A DNA stretch of 49,242 nt from positions 62,001-111,242 of the forward strand of contig JAXLQJ010000020.1 in assembly GCA_046331705.1 (NCBI GenBank), in the 5' to 3' direction. The notes beneath the pieces are model-generated. The model was not told where the DNA came from. It saw only the letters and a program-made list of their open reading frames with translations, and did not search any database. The DNA is from a bacterium. GTDB taxonomy: Bacteria; JADJOY01. Made by a program: the position numbers and the translations under genes. Below are positions 549-28,586 of this stretch, in pieces. The first letter of the stretch is position 1. Each line of letters begins with the position of its first letter.

Positions 549-1109
549 TCAGTCACCCCGATTCGGCTCGCCAACGGAAGCGCTGGGCAAGAGCAGGTCT
601 TCGAGAAAGAAGGCCGAGAGGTCGTTGCGACCGGACAACCCGGACTTGCGGTAGAGCGACAGGGATTGCTGGCGCACGGTCTGCTCGTTGGTCTTGCGGA
701 TCGCGGCGATCTCCTTGTGGCTCAACCCCTTGAGCAGCAGCAGGCCGATCTCGCGCTCCGCCGCCGTGAGATTCCAGCGTCCGAACTGGCGGTCGATGGC
801 CTCGCCCAGCCCCTCGAGATAACTGCGCGCTTCCTCGCGCCAGCGCGCGGTCTCCTGGTGGGCGCGGGCCAGATCGCGCTCGAGCTCCACCACGTGCGAG
901 CGGGTCGCCTGCATGTAGCGCCACGAGACCACGATCCCGGACAGCAGCACCACCTCGATCGAGAGCTCGAGCAAGAGATGGGTCCAATGGACCTGTTGCT
1001 GCGCGTCCTCGATCACGTCCGCCCCGATCAGCACGAACAGCACCGTCAAGAACGCGAGCGCGCCGCGGCTCGCGCGCAACCGGGTGCTCGGGGACTCGTC
1101 GATCTCCAC
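549..1109 (-). CDS. Membrane-anchored LuxR-family helix-turn-helix regulator
   Basis: Two N-terminal hydrophobic segments, a coiled coil, then LTAAEREIGLLLLKGLSHKEIAAIRKTNEQTVRQQSLSLYRK (LuxR HTH pattern). GAAGGAAGG lies upstream of the GTG. Confidence 0.85.
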   Translation of the reverse strand: MEIDESPSTRLRASRGALAFLTVLFVLIGADVIEDAQQQVHWTHLLLELSIEVVLLSGIVVSWRYMQATRSHVVELERDLARAHQETARWREEARSYLEGLGEAIDRQFGRWNLTAAEREIGLLLLKGLSHKEIAAIRKTNEQTVRQQSLSLYRKSGLSGRNDLSAFFLEDLLLPSASVGEPNRGD

Positions 1110-1257
1110 GGTGGGGCCTTCCTTCGACCAAGAGGTGGGGCTGGTATCGCAAATCGGCCCGACCGCATCAAGGAGCGGCGCGGCATGCCCACGCCCGGTC
1201 GAACGCCCCCTCGCGCGTTCGGTTGGCGCGTCCCTGCGCGTGGTTCACACTGGCCGC

Positions 1258-3936
1258 ATGAGCACGTCCAGCAAACGCCGCACGCTCTACCTCGTCGACG
1301 GCCCCAACATCGCGTTTCGCGCCTTCTTCGCCATCGGCGGCATGAAGTCGAGCCATGGCCTGCCCACCAACGCGCTCTTCGGCTTCACCAACATGCTGCT
1401 CAAGCTCATCAAGGACGAGCGGCCGGATCATCTCGCGATCGCCTGGGACCCACCCGGAAAGACGCACCGCGAGGAGCGCTACCCGGAGTACAAGGGCACG
1501 CGTCCCGACATGCCCGAGGATCTGCGTGCGCAGATGCCGTATTTCCAGCGCATCGCCGAGGCCTTCGGCATCCCGTTCCTGGAGGTGCCCCGCTACGAGG
1601 CGGACGACGTCATCGCCACGCTCACGCGCCGCCACGAGCACGAGCTGGACGTGGTGATCGTCACCTCCGACAAGGACCTGATGCAGCTCGTGGGCGACCA
1701 CGTGTCGCTGCTCGACACCATGAAGGACAAGCGCATCGGCCGCGCCGAGGTCCAGGAGAAATTCGGCTGCGCGCCCGAGCAGGTGCCCGACGCGCTGGCC
1801 ATCTGGGGGGACACCTCGGACAACATCCCCGGCGTCAAGGGGATCGGCGAGAAGGGCGTGAAGGCGCTGCTGGCGAAATGGGGCAGCCTCGCCGACATCT
1901 ACGCGAATCTCGATCGAGTGGAGCCGGCGGGCACGCGCAAGAAGCTCGAGGCCGATCGGGACAACGCGTACCTCTCGCTCGAGCTGGCCACGGTCGCGAG
2001 CGACGCGCCCGTGGAGGCGAGGATCGAGGATCTGGCGCTCGCGTTCCCGCCGCCGGTGGAGCGCGCGCGCCCGCTCTTCACCGAGCTCGAGTTCCGCGGG
2101 CTGTTGCGCGAGTTCGGCGGCGAGATGGTGTCGATCGATCGCAGCGCCTACCGTCTCGTCACGAGCGCCGACGAGCTGGCCGAGCTCGCGAAGGCGCTGC
2201 GCCGCGCGGATCGGTTCGCCGTCGACACCGAGACCACCTCCCTGCGCGCGCTCGAGGCGCGGCTGGTGGGGCTCTCCTTCTGCTGCGACGACCGGGTCGC
2301 GTGGTACGTGCCCGTCGCGCACCATTACCTCGGCTGCCCGCCGCAGCTCGACTGGGACACGGTCCGCGACGTGCTCGGTCCGCTGCTCGAGGATCCGGAC
2401 AAGGGCAAGGTCGGCCAGAACCTGAAATACGACGTCGAGGTGCTGGGCACGCACGGTGTGGACGTGCGCGGCATCGACGGCGACACCCTGCTCGCCGATT
2501 ACCTGCTCAGCCCGGAACGGCGCTCGCACAACCTCGACGATCTGGCGCTCGTGCACCTCCAGCACCGCATGATCACGTACGAGCAGACGGTGCCGAAGGG
2601 CGAGACGTTCGCGTCGGTACCGGTCGAGCAGGCGCGCGACTATTCCGCCGAGGACGCCCACGTCACGTGGCTCCTCGACAAGCGCTTGGCGCCGCGACTC
2701 GAGAGCGAAGGGCTCGGCACGCTCTACCGCGAGCTCGAGGTGCCGCTGATCCCGGTGCTCGCCCGGATGGAGGCGAACGGGATCGCCGTCGACCGCCGCG
2801 GGCTACGCGATCTCTCGCACGAGCTGGATCGACGCATCGGGGAAGCCGAGGAGGCCTGCTACCGCGCCGCCGGCACCAAGTTCTCGATCGGGTCGGTGCC
2901 GCAGCTGCGCGAGATCCTGTTCGACAAGCTGCAGCTACCGGTGCTCAAGAAGACCAAGACCGGCGCGTCCACCGACGAAGCGGTGCTCTCCGAGCTGGCC
3001 ATCCAGCACCCGCTCCCCCAAGCGATCCTCGACTACCGTTCGCTGGTCAAGCTCAAGAACACCTACGTCGACACCCTGCCCACGCTGATCAACCCACGCA
3101 CGGGCCGCATCCACACGAATTACTCGCAGACCACGGCCGCGACCGGTCGGCTCTCGTCCTCCGACCCCAACCTCCAGAACATCCCCATCCGCACCGCGGA
3201 GGGTCGACGCATCCGACACGCCTTCTGCGCTCCCGAAGGGCGGCTGCTGCTCGCGGCGGACTACTCCCAGGTGGAGCTGCGCGTCCTCGCCCACCTGGTG
3301 GGCGGCAAGGGCGGTTTCGCCGACGCGTTCGCCGCGGGCATCGACGTCCACACCCAGACCGCCGCCGGCATCTTCGGCGTGCCGGTCGAAAGCGTGGACA
3401 AGGAGCAGCGCCGCATCGCCAAGGCCGTGAACTTCGGCATCCTCTACGGACAGGGCGCCCACGGTCTGGCGCAGACCACCGGCATCTCGCGCACCGAGGC
3501 CAAGGAGTATCTGCGCCGCTACGGCGAGCGCTTCCCGGAGGTGGCCGCGTACCAGGCCAGCACCATCGCCACCGCCCGCGAGAAGGGCTACGTCGAGACT
3601 CTCCTCGGCAGGCGCCGGCGGCTCGGGGACCTCACGAGCGGCAGCCAGGTGGATCGGGCCCAGGCCGAGCGCATGGCGCTCAACACGCCCATCCAGGGCA
3701 CGGCGGCGGACCTCATCAAGAAGGCCATGATCGCCATCGATCGCCGGCTCGCGGCCGAGCACCCGGGCCAGCTCATGCTGCTCCAGGTCCACGACGAGCT
3801 GGTCTTCGAGGTCGACGAGAGCCGCGTGGACGCGGTGCGCGAGATGGTGGTCGACGAGATGACCCACGCCATCGAGCTCGCCGTGCCGCTGGTCGTCGAC
3901 ACCGGCGTCGGCCGCCACTGGGACGAGACGGACTGA
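1258..3936 (+). CDS. polA: DNA polymerase I
   Basis: 5'-3' exonuclease (LYLVDG, YEADDVIATL, GDTSDNIPGVKGIG), 3'-5' exonuclease (VDTETT), polymerase motifs A (DYSQVELR), B (RRIAKAVNFGILYG) and C (LQVHDELV). ATG 1258 is preferred to the ORF-track start at 1084. Confidence 0.98.
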   Translation: MSTSSKRRTLYLVDGPNIAFRAFFAIGGMKSSHGLPTNALFGFTNMLLKLIKDERPDHLAIAWDPPGKTHREERYPEYKGTRPDMPEDLRAQMPYFQRIAEAFGIPFLEVPRYEADDVIATLTRRHEHELDVVIVTSDKDLMQLVGDHVSLLDTMKDKRIGRAEVQEKFGCAPEQVPDALAIWGDTSDNIPGVKGIGEKGVKALLAKWGSLADIYANLDRVEPAGTRKKLEADRDNAYLSLELATVASDAPVEARIEDLALAFPPPVERARPLFTELEFRGLLREFGGEMVSIDRSAYRLVTSADELAELAKALRRADRFAVDTETTSLRALEARLVGLSFCCDDRVAWYVPVAHHYLGCPPQLDWDTVRDVLGPLLEDPDKGKVGQNLKYDVEVLGTHGVDVRGIDGDTLLADYLLSPERRSHNLDDLALVHLQHRMITYEQTVPKGETFASVPVEQARDYSAEDAHVTWLLDKRLAPRLESEGLGTLYRELEVPLIPVLARMEANGIAVDRRGLRDLSHELDRRIGEAEEACYRAAGTKFSIGSVPQLREILFDKLQLPVLKKTKTGASTDEAVLSELAIQHPLPQAILDYRSLVKLKNTYVDTLPTLINPRTGRIHTNYSQTTAATGRLSSSDPNLQNIPIRTAEGRRIRHAFCAPEGRLLLAADYSQVELRVLAHLVGGKGGFADAFAAGIDVHTQTAAGIFGVPVESVDKEQRRIAKAVNFGILYGQGAHGLAQTTGISRTEAKEYLRRYGERFPEVAAYQASTIATAREKGYVETLLGRRRRLGDLTSGSQVDRAQAERMALNTPIQGTAADLIKKAMIAIDRRLAAEHPGQLMLLQVHDELVFEVDESRVDAVREMVVDEMTHAIELAVPLVVDTGVGRHWDETD

Positions 3937-3939
3937 GTC
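3698..3939 (+). repeat. Left copy of the 242-bp polA 3'-end direct repeat (attL-like)
   Basis: Aligns without gaps to 15594-15835 with 12 mismatches (manual alignment). Confidence 0.95.
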
Positions 3940-3958
3940 AGCCGCGCGGGTGGCGCGC

Positions 3959-3986
3959 TTGTCCGTGCGGGTTGCCTCGCTATCAT
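3959..3986 (+). promoter_or_regulatory. Putative sigma70 promoter for the enhancer-binding protein gene
   Basis: TTGTCC-16 nt-TATCAT, about 40 nt upstream of ATG 4029. Confidence 0.45.
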
Positions 3987-4028
3987 CGCGGTTGAGACAA
4001 GTTCTTCGACGAGTTGACCCTTCGCCCC

Positions 4029-5669
4029 ATGAAGCCGCCCAACGCTACCAACAGTGTCACACGGATCAACCCCGAATCGGGGTTTCCCGAAATCCGGATT
4101 CCGGCCAGCGCGACGCCTTTCGACGAGAACGCCGACGAGATCGCGCTCGACCAGCTGCGTCGTTCGTACCTGCGCCTCGGTCGCCTCTACGAAGTATCCC
4201 AGTCCCTTCTCGAGCCGCGCGACGCGGAAGGTGTTTTCAACGCCATCGCACGAGCTGTTACCGACCTGGTTGGTGCCGAGCGCGTGCTAATCGCCACGCT
4301 GGAAGGCGAGCACATGACGTGTCGCGCGAGCTGCGGCTTCGATGCTGCGGTCACCGATGTCCTCCCCGTCAGCAAGACGATCGTTGGAACGGTCTTGGCG
4401 ACAGCCGAATCCGTCCTCTCAGCCGATGCCCAGCACGAGGCACAATATCGAGACGCGGCGAGCGTGGTCGTTCAGGGAATTCGCTCCGTGATGTGCTGTG
4501 CGCTGAGACCGCCGCGGGATCGACCCGTCGGATTCGTCTACGCTGACAGCAATCTCACGGACAGGGCGTTCGATCACGAGGATCTTCGGTTTCTGCACGC
4601 GCTCGCACACTACGGCTCTCTGGCCCTGGAGAGCGTGGAGCGACTCGCAACCGAACGCGCGTTGGCGCGAGATCGATCCGAAACCCTATGTGAAGCGTAC
4701 GGACCGGATCACGAGTTCGTCGGGACCAGTGCCAAGAGCCTGGCCGTGATGAATCTCGTTCGACGGGCCGCAGCAAGCAATGCGCCGGTTCTGGTCGTCG
4801 GTGAGACCGGTACGGGCAAGGAGATCGTAGCGCGTGCGCTGCACTGGCACTCTCCGAGGCGCGACGGTCCATTCATCCCCGTGAACATGGGGACCATGCT
4901 CCGCGACACAGCGCTCTCCGAGCTGTTCGGTCACGAGCGCGGCGCGTTCACCGGCGCCCATGCACCGCGCAGCGGCCTTTTTCGCCAGGCCAGCGGCGGG
5001 GTGCTCTTTCTCGACGAGATCACTGCAGCTACACCCGATGTGCAGGTGATGCTCCTGCGAACGCTACAGGAAGCAACGGTGCGACCACTGGGTGGCCGCA
5101 CAGAGGTCAAGGTCGACGTGCGCCTCGTCGCTGCGTGCAACGTCGACATCGAGGAAGAGGTACGAGCCGGCCGGTTTCGCGAGGACCTTTTCTATCGATT
5201 GAACGTGGTCCGCCTCGACCTTCCTCCTCTCCGCGAGCGCCCGGAGGATCTCGAGCTGCTGTTGAACCACTTCCTCACGCGGTTTGCGCCTCATCAACGC
5301 TACGATCCGGCGGCGTTGCGGTTGCTGTGCACGTACTCGTGGCCCGGCAACGTGAGGGAGCTGCGGAACACGGTCGAAAGCCTCACGATCCTCACTCCCG
5401 GTGACGTGATCGGGATCGAGGATATCCCCGACCGAGTGCGTCGCGCGGCACGTCCCGCCCAGCCTACTCCGGCGAGCGGCCCCCTCGAACCCCTCCGCGT
5501 GGCTGTACAACGGCTCGAGCGCGACCACATCCAGAAGGCCCTTCGAGAGACGGCGGGCAACCGCGACCAAGCCGCAGAACTGCTAGGCGTCGGACGAGCC
5601 ACGCTTTACGAGAAGATCAAGCAATACGGGATTGCCTCGTCGCAAACCTCCGATCGCAGCGCGTCCTGA
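4029..5669 (+). CDS. Sigma54-dependent enhancer-binding protein (GAF-AAA+-Fis HTH)
   Basis: GAF region (SKTIV...GIRSVMC...GFVYAD), Walker A GETGTGKE, ELFGHERGAFTGA (intact GAFTGA), LFLDEI, FREDLFYRLNV, WPGNVREL, and HTH GNRDQAAELLGVGRATLYEKIKQYG. Confidence 0.96.
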   Translation: MKPPNATNSVTRINPESGFPEIRIPASATPFDENADEIALDQLRRSYLRLGRLYEVSQSLLEPRDAEGVFNAIARAVTDLVGAERVLIATLEGEHMTCRASCGFDAAVTDVLPVSKTIVGTVLATAESVLSADAQHEAQYRDAASVVVQGIRSVMCCALRPPRDRPVGFVYADSNLTDRAFDHEDLRFLHALAHYGSLALESVERLATERALARDRSETLCEAYGPDHEFVGTSAKSLAVMNLVRRAAASNAPVLVVGETGTGKEIVARALHWHSPRRDGPFIPVNMGTMLRDTALSELFGHERGAFTGAHAPRSGLFRQASGGVLFLDEITAATPDVQVMLLRTLQEATVRPLGGRTEVKVDVRLVAACNVDIEEEVRAGRFREDLFYRLNVVRLDLPPLRERPEDLELLLNHFLTRFAPHQRYDPAALRLLCTYSWPGNVRELRNTVESLTILTPGDVIGIEDIPDRVRRAARPAQPTPASGPLEPLRVAVQRLERDHIQKALRETAGNRDQAAELLGVGRATLYEKIKQYGIASSQTSDRSAS

Positions 5670-5782
5670 TACGGCACCGTCGACGCAGAGCTGTTCATTC
5701 TGCAGACCCTTAGCCATGCGGTCGATTCACGAGCACCCCAGATCTTCCCGTCTCGTGAACCGACCGCCACCGACCATCAAGA

Positions 5783-6091
5783 TCACCGATCGTGATTCTT
5801 CCAACCGCTGTAGATGTTCTGAATCTGATGATTGAGATTCGACGCGCGGTTGCCAACCTCTTCGCGGACTCGACCCCACCGGCGGTCGAACTCCCCGTGC
5901 AAGTACTCGCCGTACTGGTTCTCGCAACGGGCGACGCAGTCGGTGTATAGGGTAGGCGGCTTGCGTTCACAAGCATCGTCGCACGACATCGCTCTTGCGC
6001 TGCTCGGGTTTGTCCCAGCCATCGCTGTGATCGCCGAAGCGAGCATCAACGTCGTGACGACCGTACGCATCCGATTCTTATTCGTGTCCAT
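5783..6091 (-). CDS. Small secreted protein with a twin CX3C motif
   Basis: ATG 6091 has a GAGGGG SD. Signal peptide ends ARA. Mature part begins MSCDDACERKPPTLYTDCVARCEN. A sigma54-like promoter lies upstream. Confidence 0.75.
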   Translation of the reverse strand: MDTNKNRMRTVVTTLMLASAITAMAGTNPSSARAMSCDDACERKPPTLYTDCVARCENQYGEYLHGEFDRRWGRVREEVGNRASNLNHQIQNIYSGWKNHDR

Positions 6092-6155
6092 GACTCGATT
6101 CCCCTCGAGAGCGGCGTTCCTCGCCGCTCGTGGTTGGTGGTTGACAGCACATGAA

Positions 6156-6171
6156 AGCAAGCCTCGCTCCA
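6156..6171 (-). promoter_or_regulatory. Sigma54 -24/-12 promoter
   Basis: Minus strand reads TGGAGCGAGGCTTGCT (GG-N10-GC with TTGCT), 65 nt above ATG 6091. Confidence 0.65.
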
Positions 6172-6251
6172 CCATCGCTCGAGCGCGATGAGTCGACACT
6201 CGGAATGATTTCAAGGAGTGTCCGCCGGCGCCATGTCCGATCAGGCAACCC

Positions 6252-6289
6252 GTCTACGCTGCCAGACTTCGGCGTCCGAGACATCGGAT
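6252..6289. promoter_or_regulatory. Tandem putative enhancer (UAS) palindromes
   Basis: GTCTACGCTGCCAGAC (6252-6267) and GTCCGAGACATCGGAT (6274-6289). Same pattern as at 11287 and 12378. Confidence 0.6.
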
Positions 6290-6690
6290 TCCCGAAGCCA
6301 CCCATTGCACGCGGCCGAGCAAGGCCTCAACACTCCTGCGGTGGATCCGCTCTGCCTGAAACCGTCAGTAGTTCTCGACCGCGTCCTGGACCGATGCCGC
6401 GGCACGAGACGCGCGCTCCCTGCTGCGTGTGCCACAGCACGCGCACCGAGATTTCCCAAGCAGCCCCTGCGGCTCAACGCGCCGGAAGCATCCAGGTCGC
6501 CCGAACCCATCGTCGGCGTGGCCTGGGGGGCGCGCGACGAGGTCTTCGGGCTATTGCATCAGGGCGGCGCGGGTGTAATCGATCGAACTCGCAATCGCTA
6601 GCGCGTCTCGTCAGCTCGCCGTGCCGCCACGCGTGCAACTAGCACGGGCCTGCCGTGCCGGCCGCCGCGAAACACGTCAGGCTCTTTGCG

Positions 6691-9207
6691 CTATGGGCAG
6701 GACACTGACGGGGTCGCCGACGACCATTCGCAAGCAGTGCCCGTCTCGAACCCGCTTTCGAAAGTCAGCACCGCCTCGGACGAGCCAGCACTGCAAGCGG
6801 GTGCGCCATCCTCGACCGTCTCCCCACAGATGCTGGCCCGCATACTCGCCCGCTGGTCCAGATCGTTGCAGGCGTCCTGCTCGTAGTGCGTGTGCGTGCA
6901 TTGCACGCCGTCCACCACCAGCTTGCTGTCCGATTTCAGCAGGTAGGTCTTGGTTGGGCCGCCATTGTACGCGAGGCGAAGCAGGCCAAGGTCCAAGATT
7001 GCGTGGTTGCCATCAACGACCGGGCAGGACGGATCGCCCCACGTGCCTAGGTTCGCCGTCATGCGACCGGAGGGAAACTGACAGGTGCCCTGAATGCCGC
7101 TGTTCCTCAGCAACATCTCACCCGTGGTCTCGATGGCGCTGGCCCCTTGATTCTCGGCGACGATCACGTGTGCGAGCGTCGCGTCGCCCCCATTGGTGAT
7201 TGCGGCACCACTCGGCGCCTCGTTTCCGCTCAGCGTCGAGTTGCGGACGATGAGGTCTCCGCTCCCGTTGGCTAGCCCTCCGCCCTCCCCCTGTGGGGAC
7301 GCGACCGTGTTTTCCGCGAGCAACGAGGCATCGATGATGGCTTGCGGCGCACCGCCGTCCGCGGCAACCAACAATGGCGACTCCACGAAGATGCCGCCCC
7401 CGGCGCTCTCCGCGGTGTTCGCTTCGACCGTAACGCGATCGAGGTGCAGTGAGCCCGAGCCATCTGAGTAGATCCCGCCGCCCTTCGCGCCGGCGCCCGT
7501 CGCTTGATTGCCTACAATCCTGACGTCCTCCAGAGACATATCTGTCGAACTCGCAATCGCGCCGCCATTGCCCTGAACTGACCCACCCGTCATGGTGAAG
7601 CCCGCGAACTTGATTGGCCCCCCTCCACCCTTCGGGTTGAACAAGCGGTCACCCCCGAGGATTTTGATGACTGTGACTGCGACCCCCGCGCCGCGGAGGG
7701 TGAGTGGCTGCCTGATGTCCAAGTCACCGAGCAGCGCATCGTCCTCGTCCGCACCGGGCCGCGTCAGCTCGTAACTCCCTGGCGCGAGAAGGATCGTCGC
7801 AGCATTCGATTGCGCGTTCGCTGCGATCACCGCTTCGCGAAGCGAACAAGCCACACCCGAGATACACCCATCCGGTTCTGGATCGTCAAGTTCGGTCACC
7901 GCGATCGACTCTCGTTCGTCCGCCTGCGCTTCGACGGCACCGGTATCGCAGTGCGCGTCTGAGCGAGGTTTGTTGCGCTGATCCGTTGTCGTGCACGGAC
8001 CGATCCCGGAGTCGACCGCAATGCTGCCGACGTCGAGCGCGTGCGTGCGTGTCGGCCCTCCGTAGTCGCCGATGGGCTTCACGCCAAGGCTGGCGACGCC
8101 GTGGCGGTCATTCGGGGCAAACAACGCGCAGGTGTTTCCGGGACTCTCGATGTTCCCGTCTTGGCTGTGGAACTGGCTCGCCGGCAGACCGCCCGGCGGG
8201 GCTGTGGCACAGTCTCCCTCGATCAGCGTGTTCCGCAGGGTCACCCCGTCTGGTCCGGTGCTTTCCAATGCATCAGCAGCGCCGTCTGCCAGGTTGCCGA
8301 TCAGGCTGCAGTCCGTCAGCGACAGCAACCCTGAGTTCTTGACAGCCGCGGCAAGGGCGGCCCGATTGCCGCTGAACGTCGAGTTGACAGCGTCGAGGGT
8401 CTCGCCAGCGTCGTTGGCGATGGCCCCACCGTGTCGCCCTGGGGTCGAGTTGCCACTGAAGGTCGAACGCGTGATTGTCACAGAAACAAGGCTGCGGTTG
8501 CCATTACCGTTATAAAGACCGCCGCCATCGTTCGCCTGAGGGCCGCCACCTGGAACAGCGACGTTGTCGCTCACCGTAGAATCCACAATCTCGAGATGAA
8601 CGGGCTTGTTCTCGTCGTCCAGATCCACCGTATAGAGGCCGCCGCCTTGGATCGCGGTATTGTCCGTCACAGTGCACCGCGTCAGCGTCAGTACGGCCGC
8701 AGCTGTCTTGATCCCGCCACCGCATGCGTAGCGGCCCGTAGAGCCAGGTGCGCATTTCGAGCTTTCCTGGTCGGCGGGTTCATCGAGCAGCGACACCTCG
8801 CCGCCTCGGATGATGAGATCGCGGAATTCAACGGTTGCCGCGCCCGGACGAACGTCGAAGACGCGATCGATCCTCTGAGCATCGATTACAGCGCCACCGT
8901 TCGAGCCGGGCGGCCCGAGAATTGTGACGGACTCGGATATGTCGAGGTCGCCTGACGCGGAGTCGTTCTCATTGGTGCCGGGCCTCGTGAGAAGGTAGGT
9001 TCCCCCTGGCAAATCAATCTCGTCAGCGCCGCTTGCGGCGTTCGCCGCAATCACCGCCTCGCGTAAGCTGCAGTCCTCCGGAGCACACGCATCGACGGAA
9101 GGGTCATCGAAACGTGTGACAGTGAATGTGGCAGCAATGCTCGCCGGTCCGAGGTGACCGAGGGTCAAGACTGCTACGATCAGCGCGGATGCAGTGCGCA
9201 GATTCAT
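6691..9207 (-). CDS. Secreted CSLREA-domain beta-helix protein (two modules, choice-of-anchor-Q-like)
   Basis: Signal peptide, CSLREAVIAANA twice, GGG-x/N-S-T-x-S-G-N beta-helix repeats, DYGGPTRTHAL...DQR...CDTGAVE, and C-terminal FESGFETG...WS. Confidence 0.9.
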   Translation of the reverse strand: MNLRTASALIVAVLTLGHLGPASIAATFTVTRFDDPSVDACAPEDCSLREAVIAANAASGADEIDLPGGTYLLTRPGTNENDSASGDLDISESVTILGPPGSNGGAVIDAQRIDRVFDVRPGAATVEFRDLIIRGGEVSLLDEPADQESSKCAPGSTGRYACGGGIKTAAAVLTLTRCTVTDNTAIQGGGLYTVDLDDENKPVHLEIVDSTVSDNVAVPGGGPQANDGGGLYNGNGNRSLVSVTITRSTFSGNSTPGRHGGAIANDAGETLDAVNSTFSGNRAALAAAVKNSGLLSLTDCSLIGNLADGAADALESTGPDGVTLRNTLIEGDCATAPPGGLPASQFHSQDGNIESPGNTCALFAPNDRHGVASLGVKPIGDYGGPTRTHALDVGSIAVDSGIGPCTTTDQRNKPRSDAHCDTGAVEAQADERESIAVTELDDPEPDGCISGVACSLREAVIAANAQSNAATILLAPGSYELTRPGADEDDALLGDLDIRQPLTLRGAGVAVTVIKILGGDRLFNPKGGGGPIKFAGFTMTGGSVQGNGGAIASSTDMSLEDVRIVGNQATGAGAKGGGIYSDGSGSLHLDRVTVEANTAESAGGGIFVESPLLVAADGGAPQAIIDASLLAENTVASPQGEGGGLANGSGDLIVRNSTLSGNEAPSGAAITNGGDATLAHVIVAENQGASAIETTGEMLLRNSGIQGTCQFPSGRMTANLGTWGDPSCPVVDGNHAILDLGLLRLAYNGGPTKTYLLKSDSKLVVDGVQCTHTHYEQDACNDLDQRASMRASICGETVEDGAPACSAGSSEAVLTFESGFETGTACEWSSATPSVSCP

Positions 9208-9253
9208 CGTCGCCTCCGGCGAGAGCTCGATAAGAAAAAGACACGAGAAAGGA

Positions 9254-10324
9254 TCAGTTCATACTCTGCAGTATCACCGCACGGATCTCGGGGTCAACTT
9301 CGCGAGCGAGGAGCTTCTCGACCGCCTGGCGAGCCTCACCGCCTGCCGGCGAAGCCGCCAACGCCTGGGCTGCGGCAGCGCGTTCGACCGGTGTCCGCTG
9401 GTAGTCGGTGGCCACGGCGATGAGCGCGTCGCCCGACGTAGGCGACGTGCTCGCCCCGGCCCACTGACTCAAGAGGCTCGGAACAAACCGGCTTGCGGAT
9501 GGGTCGGCTTGCATCTGGGCCAGGAAAGACTCGATCACTTCGTGAGGGTCGGCTGATGCGAGTCGTGCCAGCACATCAGTCGCGGCCGCCGCGTCCCCAC
9601 GCGACCGCGCGGTGACGGCAATCGCCACAGAAGATCCGGGGCGGCCCACGTCCAGAACACGCTCCCGAACCTTCGGCCGCCGATCGTTCTCAAATAGAAA
9701 TCCAAGCCGACCGTCGACATCGGCTTTCACGGGAGAAGTGCGGATGCCTTTCAGTACGGCTTCCTGAACGTCGGCGGGCAGCGCGTCAAAGTCCCCGAGC
9801 TCCACTCGCGCGTCCTCGCCAAGTATGTCGACTAGGACGTCAGCGCCTTGGCCGGTACCCGCTTCCGAAAGCGCTTGCAGGAGCTGATCGGCGAAGATGG
9901 CTTCCCCACGCGCTCGCGCGTCGAGCAGCGCACGCAGTACGCCGACCACTGCTGCCCGCGTGCCGGATCGCGCCAGCAGGCGAGCCGCGGCGAAACGCTC
10001 ATCGTCCGCCCGAGAGCCCACCAGACGGGCGAGCAGCATCGCTTCGCGGCTCGAGTCATCCGCATCCTCGCGCGCGGCTCGGTTAATCCCGCCCTCGTGG
10101 GCCGGGCCTGGAGAGTCCAGGATCACAGCAGTGGTCGATGGGCGCGACTTTGACGGCGGCGCGGACTCTCGAAGCTCGACGGCCCCCGCCCGCGACGCCT
10201 CAAACGGGCGCTCCGGGCGGGTGGCGGACATCGCTGCCCATGCAACCAGACTGACGGCGGCACAGCCGGCGAGAGCGCGACCGGCGGATCGCATCGAATC
10301 TCCCACGTCACGCCATTGGCTCAT
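9254..10324 (-). CDS. Membrane-anchored or exported alpha-helical (HEAT-like) repeat protein
   Basis: ATG 10324 lies 11 nt after the upstream gene stop. N-terminal hydrophobic segment. HEAT-like units ERFAAARLLARSG, ERAAAAQALAA and EVDPEIRAVIL. Confidence 0.7.
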   Translation of the reverse strand: MSQWRDVGDSMRSAGRALAGCAAVSLVAWAAMSATRPERPFEASRAGAVELRESAPPSKSRPSTTAVILDSPGPAHEGGINRAAREDADDSSREAMLLARLVGSRADDERFAAARLLARSGTRAAVVGVLRALLDARARGEAIFADQLLQALSEAGTGQGADVLVDILGEDARVELGDFDALPADVQEAVLKGIRTSPVKADVDGRLGFLFENDRRPKVRERVLDVGRPGSSVAIAVTARSRGDAAAATDVLARLASADPHEVIESFLAQMQADPSASRFVPSLLSQWAGASTSPTSGDALIAVATDYQRTPVERAAAAQALAASPAGGEARQAVEKLLAREVDPEIRAVILQSMN

Positions 10325-10335
10325 GGCTTTCTCGC

Positions 10336-11094
10336 TCAGAAGGACAGGTTGAGGAAGTAGCTTCCGGTCCCTGATGCGCTGTAGTGGCGAATCTTCACGT
10401 AATACGTCCCAGGTCCGACACTTGCTCGGATCGCGAAGTTGAGGCCGTAGGACCCCCCGCCATCGTCGTTCGAAGTGATGACGTTGCAACCGCCGTCGCG
10501 CAGAATTCCGTAGGTGTCGGTGGATCCCGTTGTGTAGACGGTGAGCGTCCCCGTGCGCGGAACGGTGACCACGGCCGAGTCGGCATCGCCGGGGAACTCG
10601 ATCGAGCTCAGGTTGCTGCTGTTGAGGGTTACCGGAAACGCCGTGCTGCACGACGAGCCCCAATCCTGCCCGCCGCTTGGGCCACCCGAGAAACCAGAGA
10701 CCAGCGAGTAGGACCCGGTGCCCGAAGAGGAGTAGTGGCGCACCCGGATGTAGTAGGTGCCCGGGCTGACGGCGATCGAGATGTGGAAGTTGTAGCCGTA
10801 GCTGCCCTCTCCGTCGTCGTTGGACGCGCCAGAGATCGCTCGGCAGGATCCGTCGTACAGGGCGCCGAACGTGTCCGTGGATCCGGTCGTGGAGATGTCG
10901 AGGATACCGGCAGATGTGATGACGTACCGGAAGTAGTCTTGATCGCCAGCGGGGTTGATCGCGCCCGAGATCCGCCCACCGAGCGAGATGCTGGGCGCCG
11001 TTGTGCAACTGGATCCGCCTTCGTCAGCGAGCGCGTGGCTCGACATGAGCATCGCCAGCGCAAGTGCTGCGAGAAGCTGCTTCGTGGAATGCAT
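10336..11094 (-). CDS. Secreted protein with two PPC-like (pre-peptidase C-terminal) domains
   Basis: ATG 11094 has a GGAGGGG SD and a signal peptide ending ALA. Two repeats of TTGSTDT-G-L-D...NDDG...NF-I...V-PGTYY-----HYS-SGTGSY-L. Confidence 0.88.
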   Translation of the reverse strand: MHSTKQLLAALALAMLMSSHALADEGGSSCTTAPSISLGGRISGAINPAGDQDYFRYVITSAGILDISTTGSTDTFGALYDGSCRAISGASNDDGEGSYGYNFHISIAVSPGTYYIRVRHYSSSGTGSYSLVSGFSGGPSGGQDWGSSCSTAFPVTLNSSNLSSIEFPGDADSAVVTVPRTGTLTVYTTGSTDTYGILRDGGCNVITSNDDGGGSYGLNFAIRASVGPGTYYVKIRHYSASGTGSYFLNLSF

Positions 11095-11186
11095 GGTCGT
11101 CCCCTCCACTGGCCACGGGGGCCAGTCGTCTACTGCCGATTCGGTTCGTCGCGCTAGCGCCCATCGCCCACGGACGCCCAGCGAAG

Positions 11187-11202
11187 AGCAGGCATCGTGC
11201 CA
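11187..11202 (-). promoter_or_regulatory. Sigma54 -24/-12 promoter of the PPC-HEAT-CSLREA operon
   Basis: Minus strand reads TGGCACGATGCCTGCT, near consensus TGGCACG-N4-TTGCW. Confidence 0.8.
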
Positions 11203-11286
11203 AGCGATTCGTGCCGCTCGGACTTGGGCGCCGACGAGAAATGCGCGGCGCACGGGACTCCGCAGTGGCATGAAGCAGTTGACGGC

Positions 11287-11321
11287 GTCCCGAGAACCAG
11301 ACTTGTTCCGACGCTTCAGAC
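11287..11321. promoter_or_regulatory. Tandem putative enhancer (UAS) palindromes
   Basis: GTCCCGAGAACCAGAC (11287-11302) and TTCCGACGCTTCAGAC (11306-11321). Confidence 0.6.
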
Positions 11322-11385
11322 TCATCGACGCGTCGCGAATCGACGAAGCGTGTTGTTGGTTACCGCGACTCCGGACCATCCACTG

Positions 11386-11422
11386 AAAAAAAACGCGCCC
11401 CGGATGCGGGACGCATCCGGGG
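11386..11422 (-). terminator. Intrinsic terminator after the 11462-12124 gene
   Basis: 11-bp stem CCCCGGATGCG/CGCATCCGGGG with a 3-nt loop. A8 on the plus strand gives a U8 tail on the minus strand 4 nt after the stem. Confidence 0.75.
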
Positions 11423-11461
11423 TGGGGAGAACCTGAGCCTCGCGAACAGGGTCTGAGCGGA

Positions 11462-12124
11462 CTACTCGCCGGACGCGTTCCAGTAGAAGTCCGTCGGGTC
11501 GGTCGTCACGAATCCCGGATCGACACCGAAGTCCACTTCGAGCAGAACGCCGTCCGTGCCGACGACCCTGACGTTGTCGATCTCACCAACTCCGTGCCCG
11601 ATACCATCGCCACCCTGCTTGGCAACACCGAATCGCGTCAGGTCCTGGGCGATCGCGCCTCCGCTCACCGCCACCGACGTGACGACGGCTCCCGACGACA
11701 GATCCTCGACCACGAGCGAGGCGGTGGCGCTCGCCTCACTGTAGATCATCGTGGCCCGGTACCAGTTGCCGAGCTGATAGTCGAAATTCTGGCGAACCTC
11801 GCCCATGCCTTCGGCGCCGAGGGTGAAGTGCTTCCCGCCACCGTCGAGCCCGACGATGAGATGAAAGGCGTCGTTCCCCGACTGGTTGTTCCGGAACAGC
11901 CCAAGCTCGATGCCACCGGACGAGGACACCTCGTCGAGGCGAAAGTCGGTCGCGACCAGAACACTCCCACCGCTGTACGCAATGGGCGTGTAGGCGAAAT
12001 CGTCCTCAGCGTCGACCGCCCGGAAGTGGTACGTGCCCGTCGTCGGGCATCCCGACTGCCCCATCAACACCGCAGCGAACGCCGCGCTGCCGACCAACGT
12101 CGTCCAACGCCGTAGGTTCTTCAT
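11462..12124 (-). CDS. Putative lipoprotein, beta-rich (lectin-like fold possible)
   Basis: ATG 12124 has a GGGGAGAGG SD. MKNLRRW-hydrophobic-MGQSGC resembles a lipoprotein signal. GNWYRATMIY and GEIDNVRV are ConA-like strand patterns. Confidence 0.75.
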   Translation of the reverse strand: MKNLRRWTTLVGSAAFAAVLMGQSGCPTTGTYHFRAVDAEDDFAYTPIAYSGGSVLVATDFRLDEVSSSGGIELGLFRNNQSGNDAFHLIVGLDGGGKHFTLGAEGMGEVRQNFDYQLGNWYRATMIYSEASATASLVVEDLSSGAVVTSVAVSGGAIAQDLTRFGVAKQGGDGIGHGVGEIDNVRVVGTDGVLLEVDFGVDPGFVTTDPTDFYWNASGE

Positions 12125-12254
12125 GATCCTCTCCCCTCTCCCTCGCCGTACTCGGGCGAGGCGTGTCGTTGCTGGCCTAGCTCTCGCCCCCACGGGCGAG
12201 CGCGACAGGTCGCCAGCGCGTCCAAGCCCGCTGACGCGAGCGCCTCAGCACCAG

Positions 12255-12270
12255 AGCAACAGCGGTGCCG
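12255..12270 (-). promoter_or_regulatory. Sigma54 -24/-12 promoter
   Basis: Minus strand reads CGGCACCGCTGTTGCT (GG-N10-GC). Confidence 0.75.
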
Positions 12271-12377
12271 AGGCCAGGCGACACTGACCAGAACGCATCG
12301 CCGTCGGCGAATCGCCGCGATTCTCGCGATAGCGCGCTCACGGCCACGCTGAGGCACCGAGCGACACTCGCAGTAGA

Positions 12378-12412
12378 ATCCGGGTATCCAGATGCGATCC
12401 GGGGAATCAGAC
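12378..12412. promoter_or_regulatory. Tandem putative enhancer (UAS) palindromes
   Basis: ATCCGGGTATCCAGAT (12378-12393) and ATCCGGGGAATCAGAC (12397-12412). Confidence 0.65.
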
Positions 12413-12488
12413 TTGTTGCGCCCGCACCGGGCTGACGCGGCACACCGGTCGTGGGGTTACTGTCTTCCCGCTCCCGCCAGAGGAGCGA

Positions 12489-15400
12489 ATGGGTCATGAG
12501 CACTTTGGCATTGCGATGAACGGCGCGATTGAAGACCCGCCGCGGTTCGAAACAGGTGAGCTGCTCGCTCAGCGCTATCGAGTGGTGAGTCGACTCGGGC
12601 GTGGCGGCATGGGCGAGGTGTACGAAGTTGAAGACCTCGAGTTGGGGACTCGCGTCGCCCTGAAGACCGTCGCCAGTGCGAACGACTCTGACCCAGAGGC
12701 GATGAGGCTCTTCAAGCGTGAGGTTCTTCTGGCGCGGCGAGTCACCCACCCGAGCATCTGCCGCACCTTCGACATCAGCTACCACTGCGCGGGAGGGCAC
12801 CGCGTCGCATTCCTCACGATGGAGCTACTCGTCGGGGAGTCCCTCGCGGCGCGCATCCAGCGCCAACAGCGGCTCCCGACCAACGAAGCGCTCTGCGTGA
12901 TCGAGCAGGTCGCCGCGGCACTCGACGCAGCCCATACCGCAGGCGTCGTGCACGGTGACCTGAAGAGCGCGAACATCATGATCGCGAGGACACCCGAAGG
13001 CGGCGAGCGTTCCGTGGTGACGGACTTCGGGTGCGCACGGCTGCACTTGAAGCCGGTCAGCGAGGGCGCGGCGGACGCCACCGAGTCCATCCGAGGAACG
13101 CCTGCGTACATGGCGCCCGAGCAGGTCGCTGGGAAGCCGTGTGGCCCGTCTGCAGACCTCTACGCGCTGGGCATCGTCGCCTTCGAAATGATCACGGGCA
13201 CGGTTCCGTTCCGAGCCGCGTCACCCATGGCAACGGCGATGCAGCGCCTCTACTTCGAGCCCCCGAGACCGGGATCGCTCGCGCCCGACCTCGATCCCAG
13301 GTGGGATAGCGCGATCCTGCGATGCCTGGACCGGAACCCCGACGCGCGGCCGGCCTCGGGAGCCGCCGTCGTTCAACTTCTTTGTGGCGAAGCCACGGCC
13401 CCGCGATGTCGGGCGGCGTTTCCCCAATCAGTGACGCCCTTCATCGGGCGTGAGCAGGAACTCGAGGAAGTCGCGAGCTTGGTGCGCACGTCGCGACTCG
13501 TCACCCTCACCGGAGCAGGCGGCTGCGGCAAGACTCGGCTCGCCCTCGAGTTGGCGCGCGGTTCGCAAGAGGCCTCGGAGGAGAATGCCTGGTTCGTCGA
13601 CCTGGCACCGCTCACCGGAAGCGCCGACGTCGCACATGAGACCGCGCTGACCATGGGGCTTCGGGAACAACCGGGCGAAGAACCCGCTCAAACCATCATC
13701 GACTTCCTGCAGTCGAGGACCGCGTTGATCTTGTTCGACAACTGCGAGCATGTGGTGGCGAGAGCCGCCGAGCTCGTACAACGGATCCTCAGTTCCACGC
13801 GAGGCGTACGGGTGCTCGCGACGAGCCGGCAGGTGTTGGGCGCTGCGGGCGAGTCGGTCTACCCGCTCTCGCCATTGGCCGTCCCGTCCCGGGACGCCTC
13901 GCGCCTCGAAGAAATCCGCGACGCGGCTGCTGTCCGTCTTTTCGAGGAAAGAGCCCGCGCAGCAAACCCAGTGTTCGCCCTGACCGATCGGACTGCGGCC
14001 ACGGTGGCGCAAATCTGCAGGCAACTCGACGGAATTCCCTTAGCACTGGAGCTAGCAGCCGCGAAGATTCGGACGGTTGCTCTCGCAGAAATCCTGAGGC
14101 GACTGCGGGATCGATTCCACCTCCTCCGTGGAGGGGGTGTCGGCACCCGCGAGCATCACCAAACGCTCCACGCCACAATCCAGTGGAGCCACGACCACCT
14201 GTCCCCACCCGAAGCCGTGCTGTTCCGGCGCCTCGCAGTCTTCTCGGGGGGATTCACACTCGAAGCCGTGGAGGCTGTGTGTTCCGGTTTGGGGCTCGAC
14301 GAGCACGACGTGCTGGAGTTGCTCACCGGGCTCGTCGACAAGTCGCTCGTGGTGTTCGATCCCGTGGAGTGCCGATACCGGCTTCTCGAGACCATCCGCG
14401 CATTGAGTACCGAACACCTGTGTGCTGCTGATGAGAGCATCCCGGTCGCGGCGAAGCACCAGGCATTCTTTCTCCGGTTTGCGCGAGATGCGCAGGAACA
14501 CCTGGGCACCGAAGATGAATCAGGCTGGCTCGACCGGCTTGAGACAGAACACGACAATCTTCGCGCAGCCCTGAGGCACGACGAGTCGGCCGATGGACCC
14601 GAACGCGCTCTCGACTTGGCCGGCACACTGATCCCCTTCTGGGAGACGCGGGGGTATCTCCGCGAGGCCAGAGAGATCCTCTCGGCGGCGGTTTCACGTG
14701 CCGCCCCGGCAGGATCCGGCGCGCTTCGAGCTCGCGCCCTGAGTGGCCTGGGGATCTTCGAATTCTTTCTCGGCGACTACCCATCGGCGCAGCAGCATTT
14801 CGAGGAGAGCCTCGGGATCCGCAGGAGCCTCGACGACCCATCGGCCGTGGGCGCGTCCCTCAACAACCTCGCGCTGGTCGCCCACGTGCGGGGCCAGTAC
14901 GAGGCCGCACAAACCCTCCACGAGGAGGGTCTTACGATTCAGCGCCAAGTGGGTACCGATCGGGATGTGGCGATTTCGCTCGCCAACCTGGGCGATGCAC
15001 AGAGACTTCTCGGCGACACCCAGGCCGCAAGGGTCACCCTCGACGCAGCGCTGGAGATCCTGCGCAGACTTGGCGATCGCCGACGCGAGGCTGGCGTGAT
15101 GACCAACCTCGCGCTCGTGGCGAGCGCTCAAGGGAATCTCGAAGAGGCGTGGCGGCTCCTGGATCAGAGCCTCGCCATCCGCCGAGAGCTCGGGGATAGG
15201 TGGGGGATCGCCCTCACCTGCCTGAATCTCGGAGAGTTGTGCCTCGATCGCTCGGACACCACGGGCGCGTCCGCATACCTGGTGGACTCGCTGACCACGG
15301 CGCGGGAGATCGGCGCAAACGAGCCGCTGGTCGATGGACTTCAGCTAGCCGCCCGATTCGCCGCGTCTAAGGGTGATCCAACGGCGGCCGCCCGTTTGTT

Positions 15401-15593
15401 GGCAGCGGCACACCAGCTGCGCGAGCGGATGGGGTTGCCGACCGCCCCCTCGGCGCATGCCCAGCAGGACAGAATCATCGCGTCCGCACGTCTGGAATTG
15501 GGGGAAGACAATCTCGAGGCGTGCCGAGCGGCTGGCCGAGGGATGGACCTTGGGACCGCGGTCGCACTTGCGCTCGAAAGCTGTAGGGGCTGA
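12489..15593 (+). CDS. Ser/Thr protein kinase fused to a STAND-type ATPase (COG3903/AfsR-like) and TPR repeats
   Basis: Kinase motifs GRGGMGEVY, VALK, HGDLKSAN, DFG, GTPAYMAPE. ATPase motifs FIGREQEL, Walker A GAGGCGKT, Walker B LILFDNCEH, LDGIPLALELAA. TPRs of the SLNNLA...ESLGIRR type. AGGAG SD. Confidence 0.95.
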   Translation: MGHEHFGIAMNGAIEDPPRFETGELLAQRYRVVSRLGRGGMGEVYEVEDLELGTRVALKTVASANDSDPEAMRLFKREVLLARRVTHPSICRTFDISYHCAGGHRVAFLTMELLVGESLAARIQRQQRLPTNEALCVIEQVAAALDAAHTAGVVHGDLKSANIMIARTPEGGERSVVTDFGCARLHLKPVSEGAADATESIRGTPAYMAPEQVAGKPCGPSADLYALGIVAFEMITGTVPFRAASPMATAMQRLYFEPPRPGSLAPDLDPRWDSAILRCLDRNPDARPASGAAVVQLLCGEATAPRCRAAFPQSVTPFIGREQELEEVASLVRTSRLVTLTGAGGCGKTRLALELARGSQEASEENAWFVDLAPLTGSADVAHETALTMGLREQPGEEPAQTIIDFLQSRTALILFDNCEHVVARAAELVQRILSSTRGVRVLATSRQVLGAAGESVYPLSPLAVPSRDASRLEEIRDAAAVRLFEERARAANPVFALTDRTAATVAQICRQLDGIPLALELAAAKIRTVALAEILRRLRDRFHLLRGGGVGTREHHQTLHATIQWSHDHLSPPEAVLFRRLAVFSGGFTLEAVEAVCSGLGLDEHDVLELLTGLVDKSLVVFDPVECRYRLLETIRALSTEHLCAADESIPVAAKHQAFFLRFARDAQEHLGTEDESGWLDRLETEHDNLRAALRHDESADGPERALDLAGTLIPFWETRGYLREAREILSAAVSRAAPAGSGALRARALSGLGIFEFFLGDYPSAQQHFEESLGIRRSLDDPSAVGASLNNLALVAHVRGQYEAAQTLHEEGLTIQRQVGTDRDVAISLANLGDAQRLLGDTQAARVTLDAALEILRRLGDRRREAGVMTNLALVASAQGNLEEAWRLLDQSLAIRRELGDRWGIALTCLNLGELCLDRSDTTGASAYLVDSLTTAREIGANEPLVDGLQLAARFAASKGDPTAAARLLAAAHQLRERMGLPTAPSAHAQQDRIIASARLELGEDNLEACRAAGRGMDLGTAVALALESCRG

Positions 15594-15835
15594 GCACCGC
15601 CGCGGACCTCACCAAGAAGGCCATGATCGCCATCGACCGCCGACTCGCCGCCGAGCACCCCGGCCAGCTCATGCTGCTCCAGGTCCACGACGAGTTGGTC
15701 TTCGAGGTCGACGAGAGCCGCGTGGACGCGGTGCGCGAGATGGTGGTCGACGAGATGACCCACGCCATCGAGCTCGCCGTGCCGCGGATCGTGGACACCG
15801 GCGTTGGCCGCCACTGGGACGAGACGGACTGAGTC
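15594..15835 (+). pseudogene. polA: Displaced duplicate of the polA 3' end (attR-like)
   Basis: Encodes the last ~78 codons of PolA including LQVHDELV and the TGA. Begins on the base after the kinase stop codon and has no promoter or SD. Confidence 0.93.
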
Positions 15836-16200
15836 CCTCGCGCGCCGGGTCGCTACCCGCGCGCTCACTCCGGCCGCAGAGAAACCGCTGACTCTCCATC
15901 CGCCTGCTGCCCACCGGCGCTCGCCCCAGGAGGCCCAACCGCTGCGGCTCGACGAGCGCGTGGGCCGTGCCCAGAGCGTCCACTGGCCGGCGGTCGGCCC
16001 GCCAGCGAGCCCGGCGGGGCGCACGTGGCGGCACGGCGAGGCCGTCGGCGATGACGAAACCCCTCGCCGCAGGTGGTGCGGCAGGTTACAGTTGGGGGCT
16101 TTACGGTCGGTCCGGCGTGCCGGCGGCGCGTGGGCCTCCCGAACATTCCCGTTCGAGCACCCCGACACCGTCGCAGCCAGACGGCGCACGAGGAAGTTCC

Positions 16201-18291
<2,091 letters not shown>

Positions 18292-18320
18292 CGTCCGTCG
18301 CACCGTGCGTGCGACGCCCC

Positions 18321-18356
18321 ACGAGGCCACCCGATCCGGGTGGCCTCGTTTCGTTT
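18321..18356 (+). terminator. Intrinsic terminator after fusA
   Basis: 13-bp stem ACGAGGCCACCCG/CGGGTGGCCTCGT followed by TTCGTTT. Confidence 0.8.
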
Positions 18357-18389
18357 CGGGTGACGCCCGCGTACCGCGATCACGCCGCG

Positions 18390-18418
18390 TTGAGGCGACA
18401 TCTCCGTGACAGTACGAT
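18390..18418 (+). promoter_or_regulatory. Putative sigma70 promoter (leaderless transcript)
   Basis: TTGAGG-17 nt-TACGAT, 6 nt before ATG 18425, with no SD. Confidence 0.5.
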
Positions 18419-18424
18419 GGCGGC

Positions 18425-22732: not shown

Positions 22733-22947
22733 CGACGAGCTCGACTACGCATGAGCACGCTCGCAACGTCGTGAACAACCGCGGACGCGGCGATCTTGCG
22801 CGGACACGCGCGGTGCCCGCAATCGTTCCCTGCTTCGCGCGCAGCGCGTCCGAAGTCATCACCGCGGTCGACGCTTACGCGCTCGATCGAGCTCGCGCGG
22901 CGCCCCCGATGCGTCGCATTGACCGAGGCGGGGTCACAGGGAAACAG

Positions 22948-28556: not shown

Positions 28557-28586
28557 CGAATCATCCTCCCTTTCATCGTGAGTCTT

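Follow-up and report, generated by a model that had tools for sequence, protein, structure and literature searches.

We present here an analysis of the DNA polymerase I gene (polA) and of the DNA behind it in an uncultured bacterium of the lineage JADJOY01. The window, by which we mean the whole stretch of DNA analysed, comprises 49,242 nt (positions 62,001 to 111,242 of the forward strand of contig JAXLQJ010000020.1, GenBank assembly GCA_046331705.1). It belongs to a metagenome-assembled genome (MAG) of 8.17 Mb in 118 contigs, which is 95.7% complete with 2.6% contamination. In the window, polA occupies 1258..3936 on the plus strand, with the Pfam domains 5_3_exonuc_N, 5_3_exonuc, DNA_pol_A_exo1 and DNA_pol_A (E 2.6e-150) and a G+C content at third codon positions (GC3) of 0.93. 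It is the sole full-length polA match of the genome; the longest open reading frame (ORF) begins at GTG 1084, and translation probably starts at ATG 1258. The last 239 nt of the gene (stop codon 3934-3936) and the 12 nt after the stop form a segment of 251 nt at 3698..3948 of the plus strand, called below copy A or the in-gene tail, and this segment recurs on the same strand at 15594..15844 as copy B or the orphan tail. Between the two copies lies an inserted island of 11,645 bp, 3949..15593, and beyond copy B the chromosome continues to fusA, the gene for elongation factor G.

The two copies are 94% identical over 251 nt without a gap, with a spacing of 11,896 nt, a match far beyond chance; they are the only direct-repeat family returned by a repeat search of the window. 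In the pairwise alignment the homology sets in abruptly at 3698/15594 and ends 12 nt past the stop codon, and the longest identical block between the copies is 90 nt. A column-by-column comparison of the 239 coding bases gives 12 differences, nine of them synonymous and three not, the orphan copy having I>T at 3716, L>R at 3890 and V>I at 3892. The 12 post-stop bases hold 3 further differences. Copy B consists of 79 open codons, a stop at 15830-15832 and then 12 nt, with a GC3 of 0.96, and its first base is the base directly after the stop of a kinase ORF, 12489-15593. An earlier reading, made from the letters of the window alone (the sequence-only reading), had described a polA end that returns ungapped about 11.9 kb downstream, right behind the kinase stop, with 12 mismatches divided nine to three; our comparison bears out all of this, the repeated segment being 251 nt (239 + 12). 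A search of the own genome returns, besides copies A and B, two weak short matches (42-68 nt, 74-81% identity), and there is no third full copy of the segment in its 118 contigs. A second polA tail is likewise found neither in the other five of the six genomes of the phylum nor in 35 unrelated genomes.

An island-free allele from a conspecific sets the limits of the island. It is the contig L078, the one record obtained when metagenome contigs were scanned for a 36-base word of the tail, and it matches the window over 1854-3948 with 3 mismatches in 2095 nt and then runs straight into 15845-15943. It carries the 251-nt segment once and no island, and its polA is 99.9% identical to that of the window. 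Therefore 3949-15593 is a true insertion with exact limits (3948 -> 15845 in the empty allele), by which one 251-nt segment has become two. The insertion point lies 12 nt past the polA stop codon, so that polA is not interrupted; here the sequence-only reading, which had the island integrated within the polA 3' end, has to be corrected, while the placement of an insertion between polA and fusA is confirmed by empty junctions in the sister species G002 and G003 and in the conspecific L078. In G002, of the same genus, polA runs directly into the upstream region of fusA; in G003 a spacer of ~440 nt without any island separates the two genes; and in G005, of another genus, other DNA follows polA. 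No other occupant of the polA-fusA site is present among the five related genomes G001-G005. Compared with these five genomes, the listed matches of the island longer than 200 nt have at most 73% identity, all in AAA+, kinase and TPR domains, and shorter ones of up to 95% over 40 nt; within the own genome there are likewise only paralog-level matches to the AAA+, kinase and TPR parts. The island is thus absent from G001-G005, and no relative carries the same genes here without the duplication. We also note that the polA contig of G001 (L038, G001:C523) stops 70 nt into the tail and that the remaining tail is nowhere in this 990-contig assembly, which could mean a repeat there too, or nothing.

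The empty allele also tells which of the two tails is the resident one. L078 is identical to copy A at 239 of 239 tail positions and at 11 of 12 post-stop positions, and differs from copy B by 12 tail and 3 post-stop mismatches. The in-gene copy is therefore the living resident allele, and polA has been neither cut nor re-tailed. This speaks against the earlier proposal, in which the gene had received a replacement tail and its original tail had been displaced as the orphan. With G002, G001 (first 70 nt only), G003 and G005 as outgroups, the substitutions between the copies can be given a direction. Derived states of the in-gene copy are at 3702, 3705, 3741 and 3753, each of them a synonymous change and each with the outgroup base retained in the orphan. 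On the orphan's side 3716, 3747, 3799, 3890, 3892 and 3909 are derived, and probably 3765 as well, with 3897 ambiguous, so 7-8 changes in all. All 3 non-synonymous changes are on the orphan branch, and so are three synonymous changes to A or T (CGA, TTG, GTT), out of four such changes in total. After the stop codon the orphan has CCCTCGC, which is G002-like, while the in-gene copy and the island-free allele share RGCCGCGCG. Since the orphan retains CCCTCGC and the outgroup states, it is not a recently decayed duplicate of today's in-gene tail; from its sequence it looks like an older or sister-lineage allele in decay, a non-functional relic. The synonymous bias between the copies, from which it had been concluded that both evolved as functional polA, is accounted for by the evolution of the living gene together with the decay of the orphan, and gives no evidence of two functional tails.

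The common history of the tails is less clear. Copies A and B share two derived states relative to G002, G003 and G005, namely Asp for His at 3853 and C at 3894. A maximum-likelihood (ML) tree of the 239-nt tails, an analysis suggested with the sequence-only reading and now built, does not separate the in-gene and empty-site tails (A/E), B and G002, and we therefore do not take A and B as sister copies on the two shared states. A recent exchange of the tail with G002 was considered as well, because the tail windows are the least diverged of polA in this comparison (4-8 mismatches per 183 nt, median 24) and four-fold third positions differ at 7/44 in the tail against 181/449 upstream. It is retained only as a weak lead, for 5 of 6 other species pairs likewise diverge less in the tail and the upstream sites are saturated.

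Along the chromosome, the relation to the island-free allele changes at the island. To its left, L078 differs by 2 mismatches in 1844 nt of polA and by none in the 239 nt of copy A; to its right, by 15 in the 251 nt of copy B and by 4 in the 99 nt of spacer at 15845-15943. Ancestry thus changes at the island, a pattern that a one-sided recombination would produce. It could come from DNA imported by way of an anchor in polA, with an illegitimate joint at 3698, and could equally come from a later overwriting of polA and copy A from an island-free strain, with a tract ending at 3948.

The structure is found outside the MAG as well. The stretch 6200-16199 is present in 20 of 24 listed public metagenome runs, belonging to 13 studies, and all of them are from sludge, wastewater or digesters. 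We checked the junctions in the contigs assembled per run for four runs of four studies (X2, X3, X5 and X9), with a possible source run excluded. The left junction, 3948/3949, is bridged in all four (X2 3908-4951, X3 3860-4505, X5 3908-4687, X9 3682-4763), and the X9 contig covers all of copy A with 0 differences. The right junction, 15593/15594, is bridged in two of the four (X3 13886-15691, X5 14978-15642); the X9 contig has just 29 nt on one side of it, and for X2 no piece is listed. Otherwise, contig ends fall within the identical 90-nt block shared by the two copies, as is expected of short-word assemblies. In X3 the contig depths are alike along polA, island and fusA (6.3-9.95). A chimeric assembly, in which two strains or loci were joined in the MAG through the shared polA tail, was named with the sequence-only reading as an outcome that would refute it, and an assembly of 118 contigs with 2.6% contamination, together with a 90-nt block at which the contigs of other runs do break, gives such an artefact some room. 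Against this stand the independent contigs of four studies across the junctions, the even depths of X3 and the spread over 20 runs and 13 studies, and we regard the artefact as scarcely credible. One X5 contig joins 3937 to 16060, which is the arrangement of G002, and most likely comes from a relative. The direct joint 3948 -> 15845 is unlisted in the four runs, a result uninformative on excision because assembled contigs hide rare forms.

Beyond copy B, the part of the polA-fusA spacer at 15845..16055 (plus strand) is specific to the species: it is in the empty allele L078 and absent from G002, whose type of spacer resumes only at ~16056, and it is polymorphic in the population. At 15963-16071 the X2 and X3 contigs differ at 10 positions and by a 10-nt deletion and are identical on either side, hence the spacer is hypervariable among island-bearing strains. 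A degenerate third tail in 15833-16060, which would suggest serial displacement, is rejected (local alignment score 27, against 23.6 +/- 2.8 for shuffled sequences with a maximum of 39). A resemblance by eye of the island's left end to the G002-type spacer behind polA is also dismissed, since shuffled sequences reach the score in 190 of 500 and 81 of 500 cases, and a terminator-like hairpin at the insertion point folds no better than shuffled sequence (z -1.08 to +1.05). The fusA gene, 16201..18291 on the plus strand (NCBIfam TIGR00484, 955 bits against a cut-off of 659; GC3 0.91), is the native neighbour of polA, and its ATG start is conserved with G002 and G003.

The composition of the island is foreign. 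Its long ORFs have GC3 values of 0.73-0.80, compared with 0.91-0.96 for the flanking genes and the tails, a measure that had been proposed with the sequence-only reading. The block opens on the plus strand with a sigma-54-dependent activator at 4014..5669 (GAF, AAA+ and Fis-type helix-turn-helix (HTH) domains; Pfam Sigma54_activat 8.3e-60, GAF, AAA_lid_14, HTH_8), for which every NCBIfam match is under the equivalog cut-off and whose paralogs in the own genome are at most 49% identical. A minus-strand block follows. It contains a right-handed beta-helix protein of 838 aa at 6691..9207 (Pfam Beta_helix; NCBIfam choice_anch_Q, CSLREA_Nterm and POMP_repeat), which by its domains is probably secreted or located at the surface, and whose best homologue outside, in a search of 5.8 billion clusters, is 32% identical. 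Frame and start analysis places next to it, at 9254..10324, an Ala/Arg-rich ORF of ~350 aa with a hydrophobic N-terminus; its start is uncertain, as the ORF call of 584 aa overlaps the next gene, and it has no Pfam, NCBIfam or PADLOC family and no paralog in the own genome. At 10336..11094 there is a secreted protein of 252 aa with two pre-peptidase C-terminal (PPC) domains (Pfam PPC 6e-11, two stretches) and a signal-peptide-like N-terminus at ATG 11094. The first gene of the minus-strand block is a 243-aa ORF at 11462..12193 (G+C by codon position 0.65/0.51/0.80) without a family match in Pfam, NCBIfam or PADLOC. A sigma-54-type -24/-12 match on the minus strand at 12256-12270 (CGGCAC-N5-TTGC, one mismatch) lies 63 nt before the ORF that begins at 12193; a sigma-54 promoter for the minus-strand genes is not accepted, because such matches occur in the window at chance level (2 against 2.64 expected, and 48 against 42.6). 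The last gene, 12489..15593 on the plus strand, encodes a Ser/Thr kinase fused to a STAND (NB-ARC/AAA) NTPase and TPR repeats (1034 aa; Pfam Pkinase 7.4e-42, NB-ARC, AAA_22, TPR_12). It is of full length, for paralogs in the own genome align up to residues 1031-1034 of 1034 and homologues outside are 825-1800 aa long, most of them 980-1250; the best of the latter are 39-41% identical over most of the length and up to 43% over two thirds. With closest homologues of merely 32% for the beta-helix protein and 39-43% for the kinase, the donor appears to be unsampled. The own genome is rich in paralogs of both the sigma-54 activator and the Ser/Thr kinase (47 tblastn hits each). A known defence system was considered for the cargo and rejected, as PADLOC yields only generic kinase and AAA+ domain matches.

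Genes for movement are not found in the island. Among 94 six-frame ORFs of at least 70 codons (3863-16237) and 17 long ORFs there is no integrase, transposase, resolvase, relaxase or other mobility domain, and 18 further ORFs scanned in the window show no recombinase; the island is integrase-less, just as it was first described. The domain scans of its ORFs also give no remnant of coupling-protein, type IV secretion system, integrative and conjugative element (ICE), integrative and mobilizable element (IME) or phage genes. There is no tRNA gene in window positions 1-20000, and no Rfam family matches the island. The tyrosine-recombinase family PF00589 is represented by 9 matches elsewhere in the genome; none is on this contig, and six score above 100 bits.

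An insertion may come to be flanked by 251 nt of its target through any of four processes: a crossover with a circle, illegitimate recombination of a linear fragment, site-specific recombination, and capture at a staggered break. Three of these four need an imported copy of the polA end, so the idea in the sequence-only reading that the island brought a polA tail is probably right to the extent that some copy of this end was imported; the tail in use is not the island's. We tentatively favour, as a reading that is quite possible though far from assured, that the foreign block was inserted by recombination of the host through homology at the polA end, without an integrase of its own. The preference is due to the lack of any mobility gene or remnant, to the long and diverged repeats and to the ancestry switch at the island; an imperfect repeat of 251 nt is a length fit for homologous recombination and long for the core of an attachment (att) site. 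The event would have happened in an ancestor of the species or in a sister lineage. The incoming DNA, bearing the sigma-54 activator, the minus-strand genes for secreted proteins and the kinase-STAND-TPR protein, would itself have carried a copy of the polA end, and would have recombined through that homology to enter 12 nt behind the polA stop. This may have proceeded as a Campbell-type single crossover of a circular molecule, or else as homology-facilitated illegitimate recombination of a linear fragment. Either route would leave two copies of the 251-nt segment, of which the orphan would later gather damaging changes.

Several points weigh against this explanation. The junction of a circle, a hybrid repeat and a donor genome are all unseen, assembled contigs being unable to show rare excision products. 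The in-gene copy has no orphan-type base, so that a RecA crossover would be confined to the last 39 nt, beyond 3909, while the 90-nt identical block would be the likelier place for it; an edge-specific event, either site-specific or illegitimate, fits this pattern better. A later exchange by homologous recombination could have put the empty-site allele in place of copy A, and if so the differences between A and B are silent on the original event. In addition, a single contig of 5.8 kb (L078), reaching 111 nt past the stop codon, is the basis of the empty allele, the ML tree does not resolve the tails A/E, B and G002, and the 4% divergence of the spacer is weak evidence given the hypervariability seen between X2 and X3 (10 positions and a 10-nt indel).

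The pattern at the right edge is the chief reason to consider a parasitic island moved by a site-specific recombinase that is encoded elsewhere. The two 251-nt copies would then be attL and attR, with a crossover near their right edge (the identical block 3910-3939, or CGCGCG at 3943-3948), and a fixed crossover there would explain why copy A is wholly of the resident type and copy B wholly of the other type, as well as why the limits are sharp and the empty allele has exactly one copy. The genome does hold possible recombinases in its PF00589 matches on other contigs, and the microcin H47 island of Escherichia coli, 13 kb long with imperfect repeats, is a precedent for movement without homologous recombination (PMC3191183). 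The absence of ICE, IME or phage remnants from the island, the lack of another occupant of the site in five related genomes and the lack of any viral contig with the polA tail among those searched speak against it. Moreover, rebuilding the gene does not call for polA homology on the side of the presumed crossover where it is found. We consider this explanation, whether in an H47-like form or as a decayed element that has lost its integrase, rather unlikely, though worth keeping in mind. Less probable, and in our view simply unlikely, is that the island is a recombinase-free mobile unit whose sole mobility module is the 251-nt homology arm from the polA end. If this were true, one crossover would suffice to bring it into any related chromosome and its repeats would let it out again; the species would alternate between occupied and empty alleles, and the polA alleles of former hosts would stay recorded in the arm.

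Two further explanations concern the origin of the orphan. The one proposed in the sequence-only reading is of the type of e14 and phage 21, in which the island sits within the polA 3' end and supplies the tail, and the orphan is the displaced original. The orphan is indeed contiguous with the native spacer and fusA; it and the spacer are both 4-6% off the empty allele and could form one resident haplotype; the A/B differences are mostly synonymous; and e14 between icd and icdC is a documented case (PMC13626634). This model predicts the orphan type in island-free chromosomes, whereas the in-gene tail is the one identical to L078 at 239 of 239 positions. There is no integrase beside either repeat, both tails have a native-like GC3 of 0.93-0.96 unlike the cargo, and the homology passes the stop codon with the island starting 12 nt after it, so we find the model improbable. 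As for an in-situ duplication, foreign DNA would have been captured at a staggered break by end-joining and fill-in, with a target duplication of 251 nt, and the island would later have been lost in some strains. The fossil-like orphan, ancestral at four sites and at the post-stop triplet, would suit this history, and 4 synonymous changes against 7-8 mixed ones fit a single age with selection on one copy. We know of no bacterial process by which a target would be duplicated over such a length. To yield the island-free allele, a deletion with its crossover confined to the last 6-39 nt would have been necessary, yet that allele differs at 4 of 99 spacer positions; and of the 7-8 changes on the orphan branch 3 are non-synonymous, a share below the ~0.74 expected under neutrality (our binomial estimate, p ~0.06-0.08). 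Altogether an in-situ duplication seems quite improbable, and host recombination through the polA end stays the reading with which we proceed.

Among described systems, the H47 island (Azpiroz et al. 2011) is the nearest in form. Its report (PMC3191183) describes extensive imperfect direct repeats, no recombinase genes, and excision and integration shown experimentally and independent of homologous recombination. The likeness lies in the small size (13 against 11.6 kb), the long imperfect repeats, the lack of integrase and excisionase and the existence of island-free sites in conspecifics, so that the structure typical of this form is present here. The difference is that mobility is proven by experiment for H47 and that the polA island is known from sequence; furthermore, here the repeats consist of an essential gene's end, the cargo is made up of regulatory and secreted proteins, and the host is uncultured. 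The e14 element, or phage 21, in icd of E. coli leaves the 3' fragment icdC (PMC13626634; Hill et al. 1989 cited there), and it has its own site-specific recombination system, supplies the tail while integrated, and upon excision lets icd join to icdC. Both cases show the 3' end of a housekeeping gene duplicated around an element, with mostly synonymous differences and a distant orphan C-terminal fragment. Unlike e14, the polA island has no integrase, and its tail in use is that of island-free genomes; the single island-free contig L078 has the in-gene type at all 12 sites that distinguish the tails.

Cis-mobilizable elements (CIMEs) are decayed ICEs or IMEs which keep attL and attR and have lost the genes of integration and transfer, as they are defined in PMC5704250. 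They resemble our island in the position at the 3' end of a gene, the direct repeats and the lack of integrase and transfer genes. The polA island differs in having no remnants of conjugation or integration and no related ICE or IME at the site in G001-G005 that would show such descent; its cargo homologues are distant, and the 251-nt repeats are only putative att sites. In rhs and type VI secretion system (T6SS) loci, homology-facilitated illegitimate recombination displaces C-terminal ends and leaves cast-off 3' fragments, by the account in PMC5361080, where de Vries & Wackernagel 2002, Prudhomme et al. 2002 and Jackson et al. 2009 are cited for the mechanism. These loci share with the polA island a conserved upstream anchor, a downstream cast-off 3' fragment, the lack of a recombinase in cis and an ancestry switch at the insertion. 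There, functionally new toxin tips and arrays of orphans arise, in contrast to the same protein end, the one orphan and the cargo unrelated to polA found here. Illegitimate recombination would place one junction within homology to the anchor gene and make the other a non-homologous joint, with a displaced 3' fragment downstream, and both this structure and the ancestry switch fit our island; a single crossover of a circle gives the same structure, and no donor has been found for either. A classical integrase island would show an integrase gene at one end, short att repeats and often a tRNA gene as its target, and here there are repeats of 251 nt and neither of the two genes. Among the literature search results examined, nothing relevant on polA as an integration target came up, though this does not prove that no such case has been published.

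The host lineage is a sparsely sampled, large-genome phylum of activated sludge, of which order, class and phylum each comprise the same six species genomes of 5.5-8.4 Mb. A few observations on its genomes are added here. About 4.6 kb downstream of fusA, at 22923-24572 of the window, a gene fuses an Ada-type zinc-binding domain, an AraC HTH and an AlkA-type glycosylase, and its predicted product would be an adaptive-response regulator fused to a repair enzyme. At 25929-28586 and 28587-32363 on the minus strand there are two adjacent large paralogs with FG-GAP, MopE-type metal-binding and thrombospondin-type-3 repeats, the second having a reprolysin-like metalloprotease domain as well; the G003 locus matches both of them many times over through internal repeats. 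The polA match of G003 (L036, G003:C30) is split into query 2-237 and 235-378 in different frames, which suggests a frameshift or an assembly error.

Overall, our analysis shows a genuine, stable, integrase-less island behind an intact polA, which is a fairly familiar kind of acquired island and points to no new mechanism. Its value is that three states of one 251-nt segment, living, cast-off and island-free, are available together, so that the substitutions gain a direction, and this corrects the tempting misreading by which a synonymous bias is taken as a sign of two functional tails. The case shows how a foreign block of genes can settle beside an essential gene without a recombinase of its own, and it bears on the question of what share of the gene flow among uncultured bacteria is independent of dedicated mobile-element machinery.

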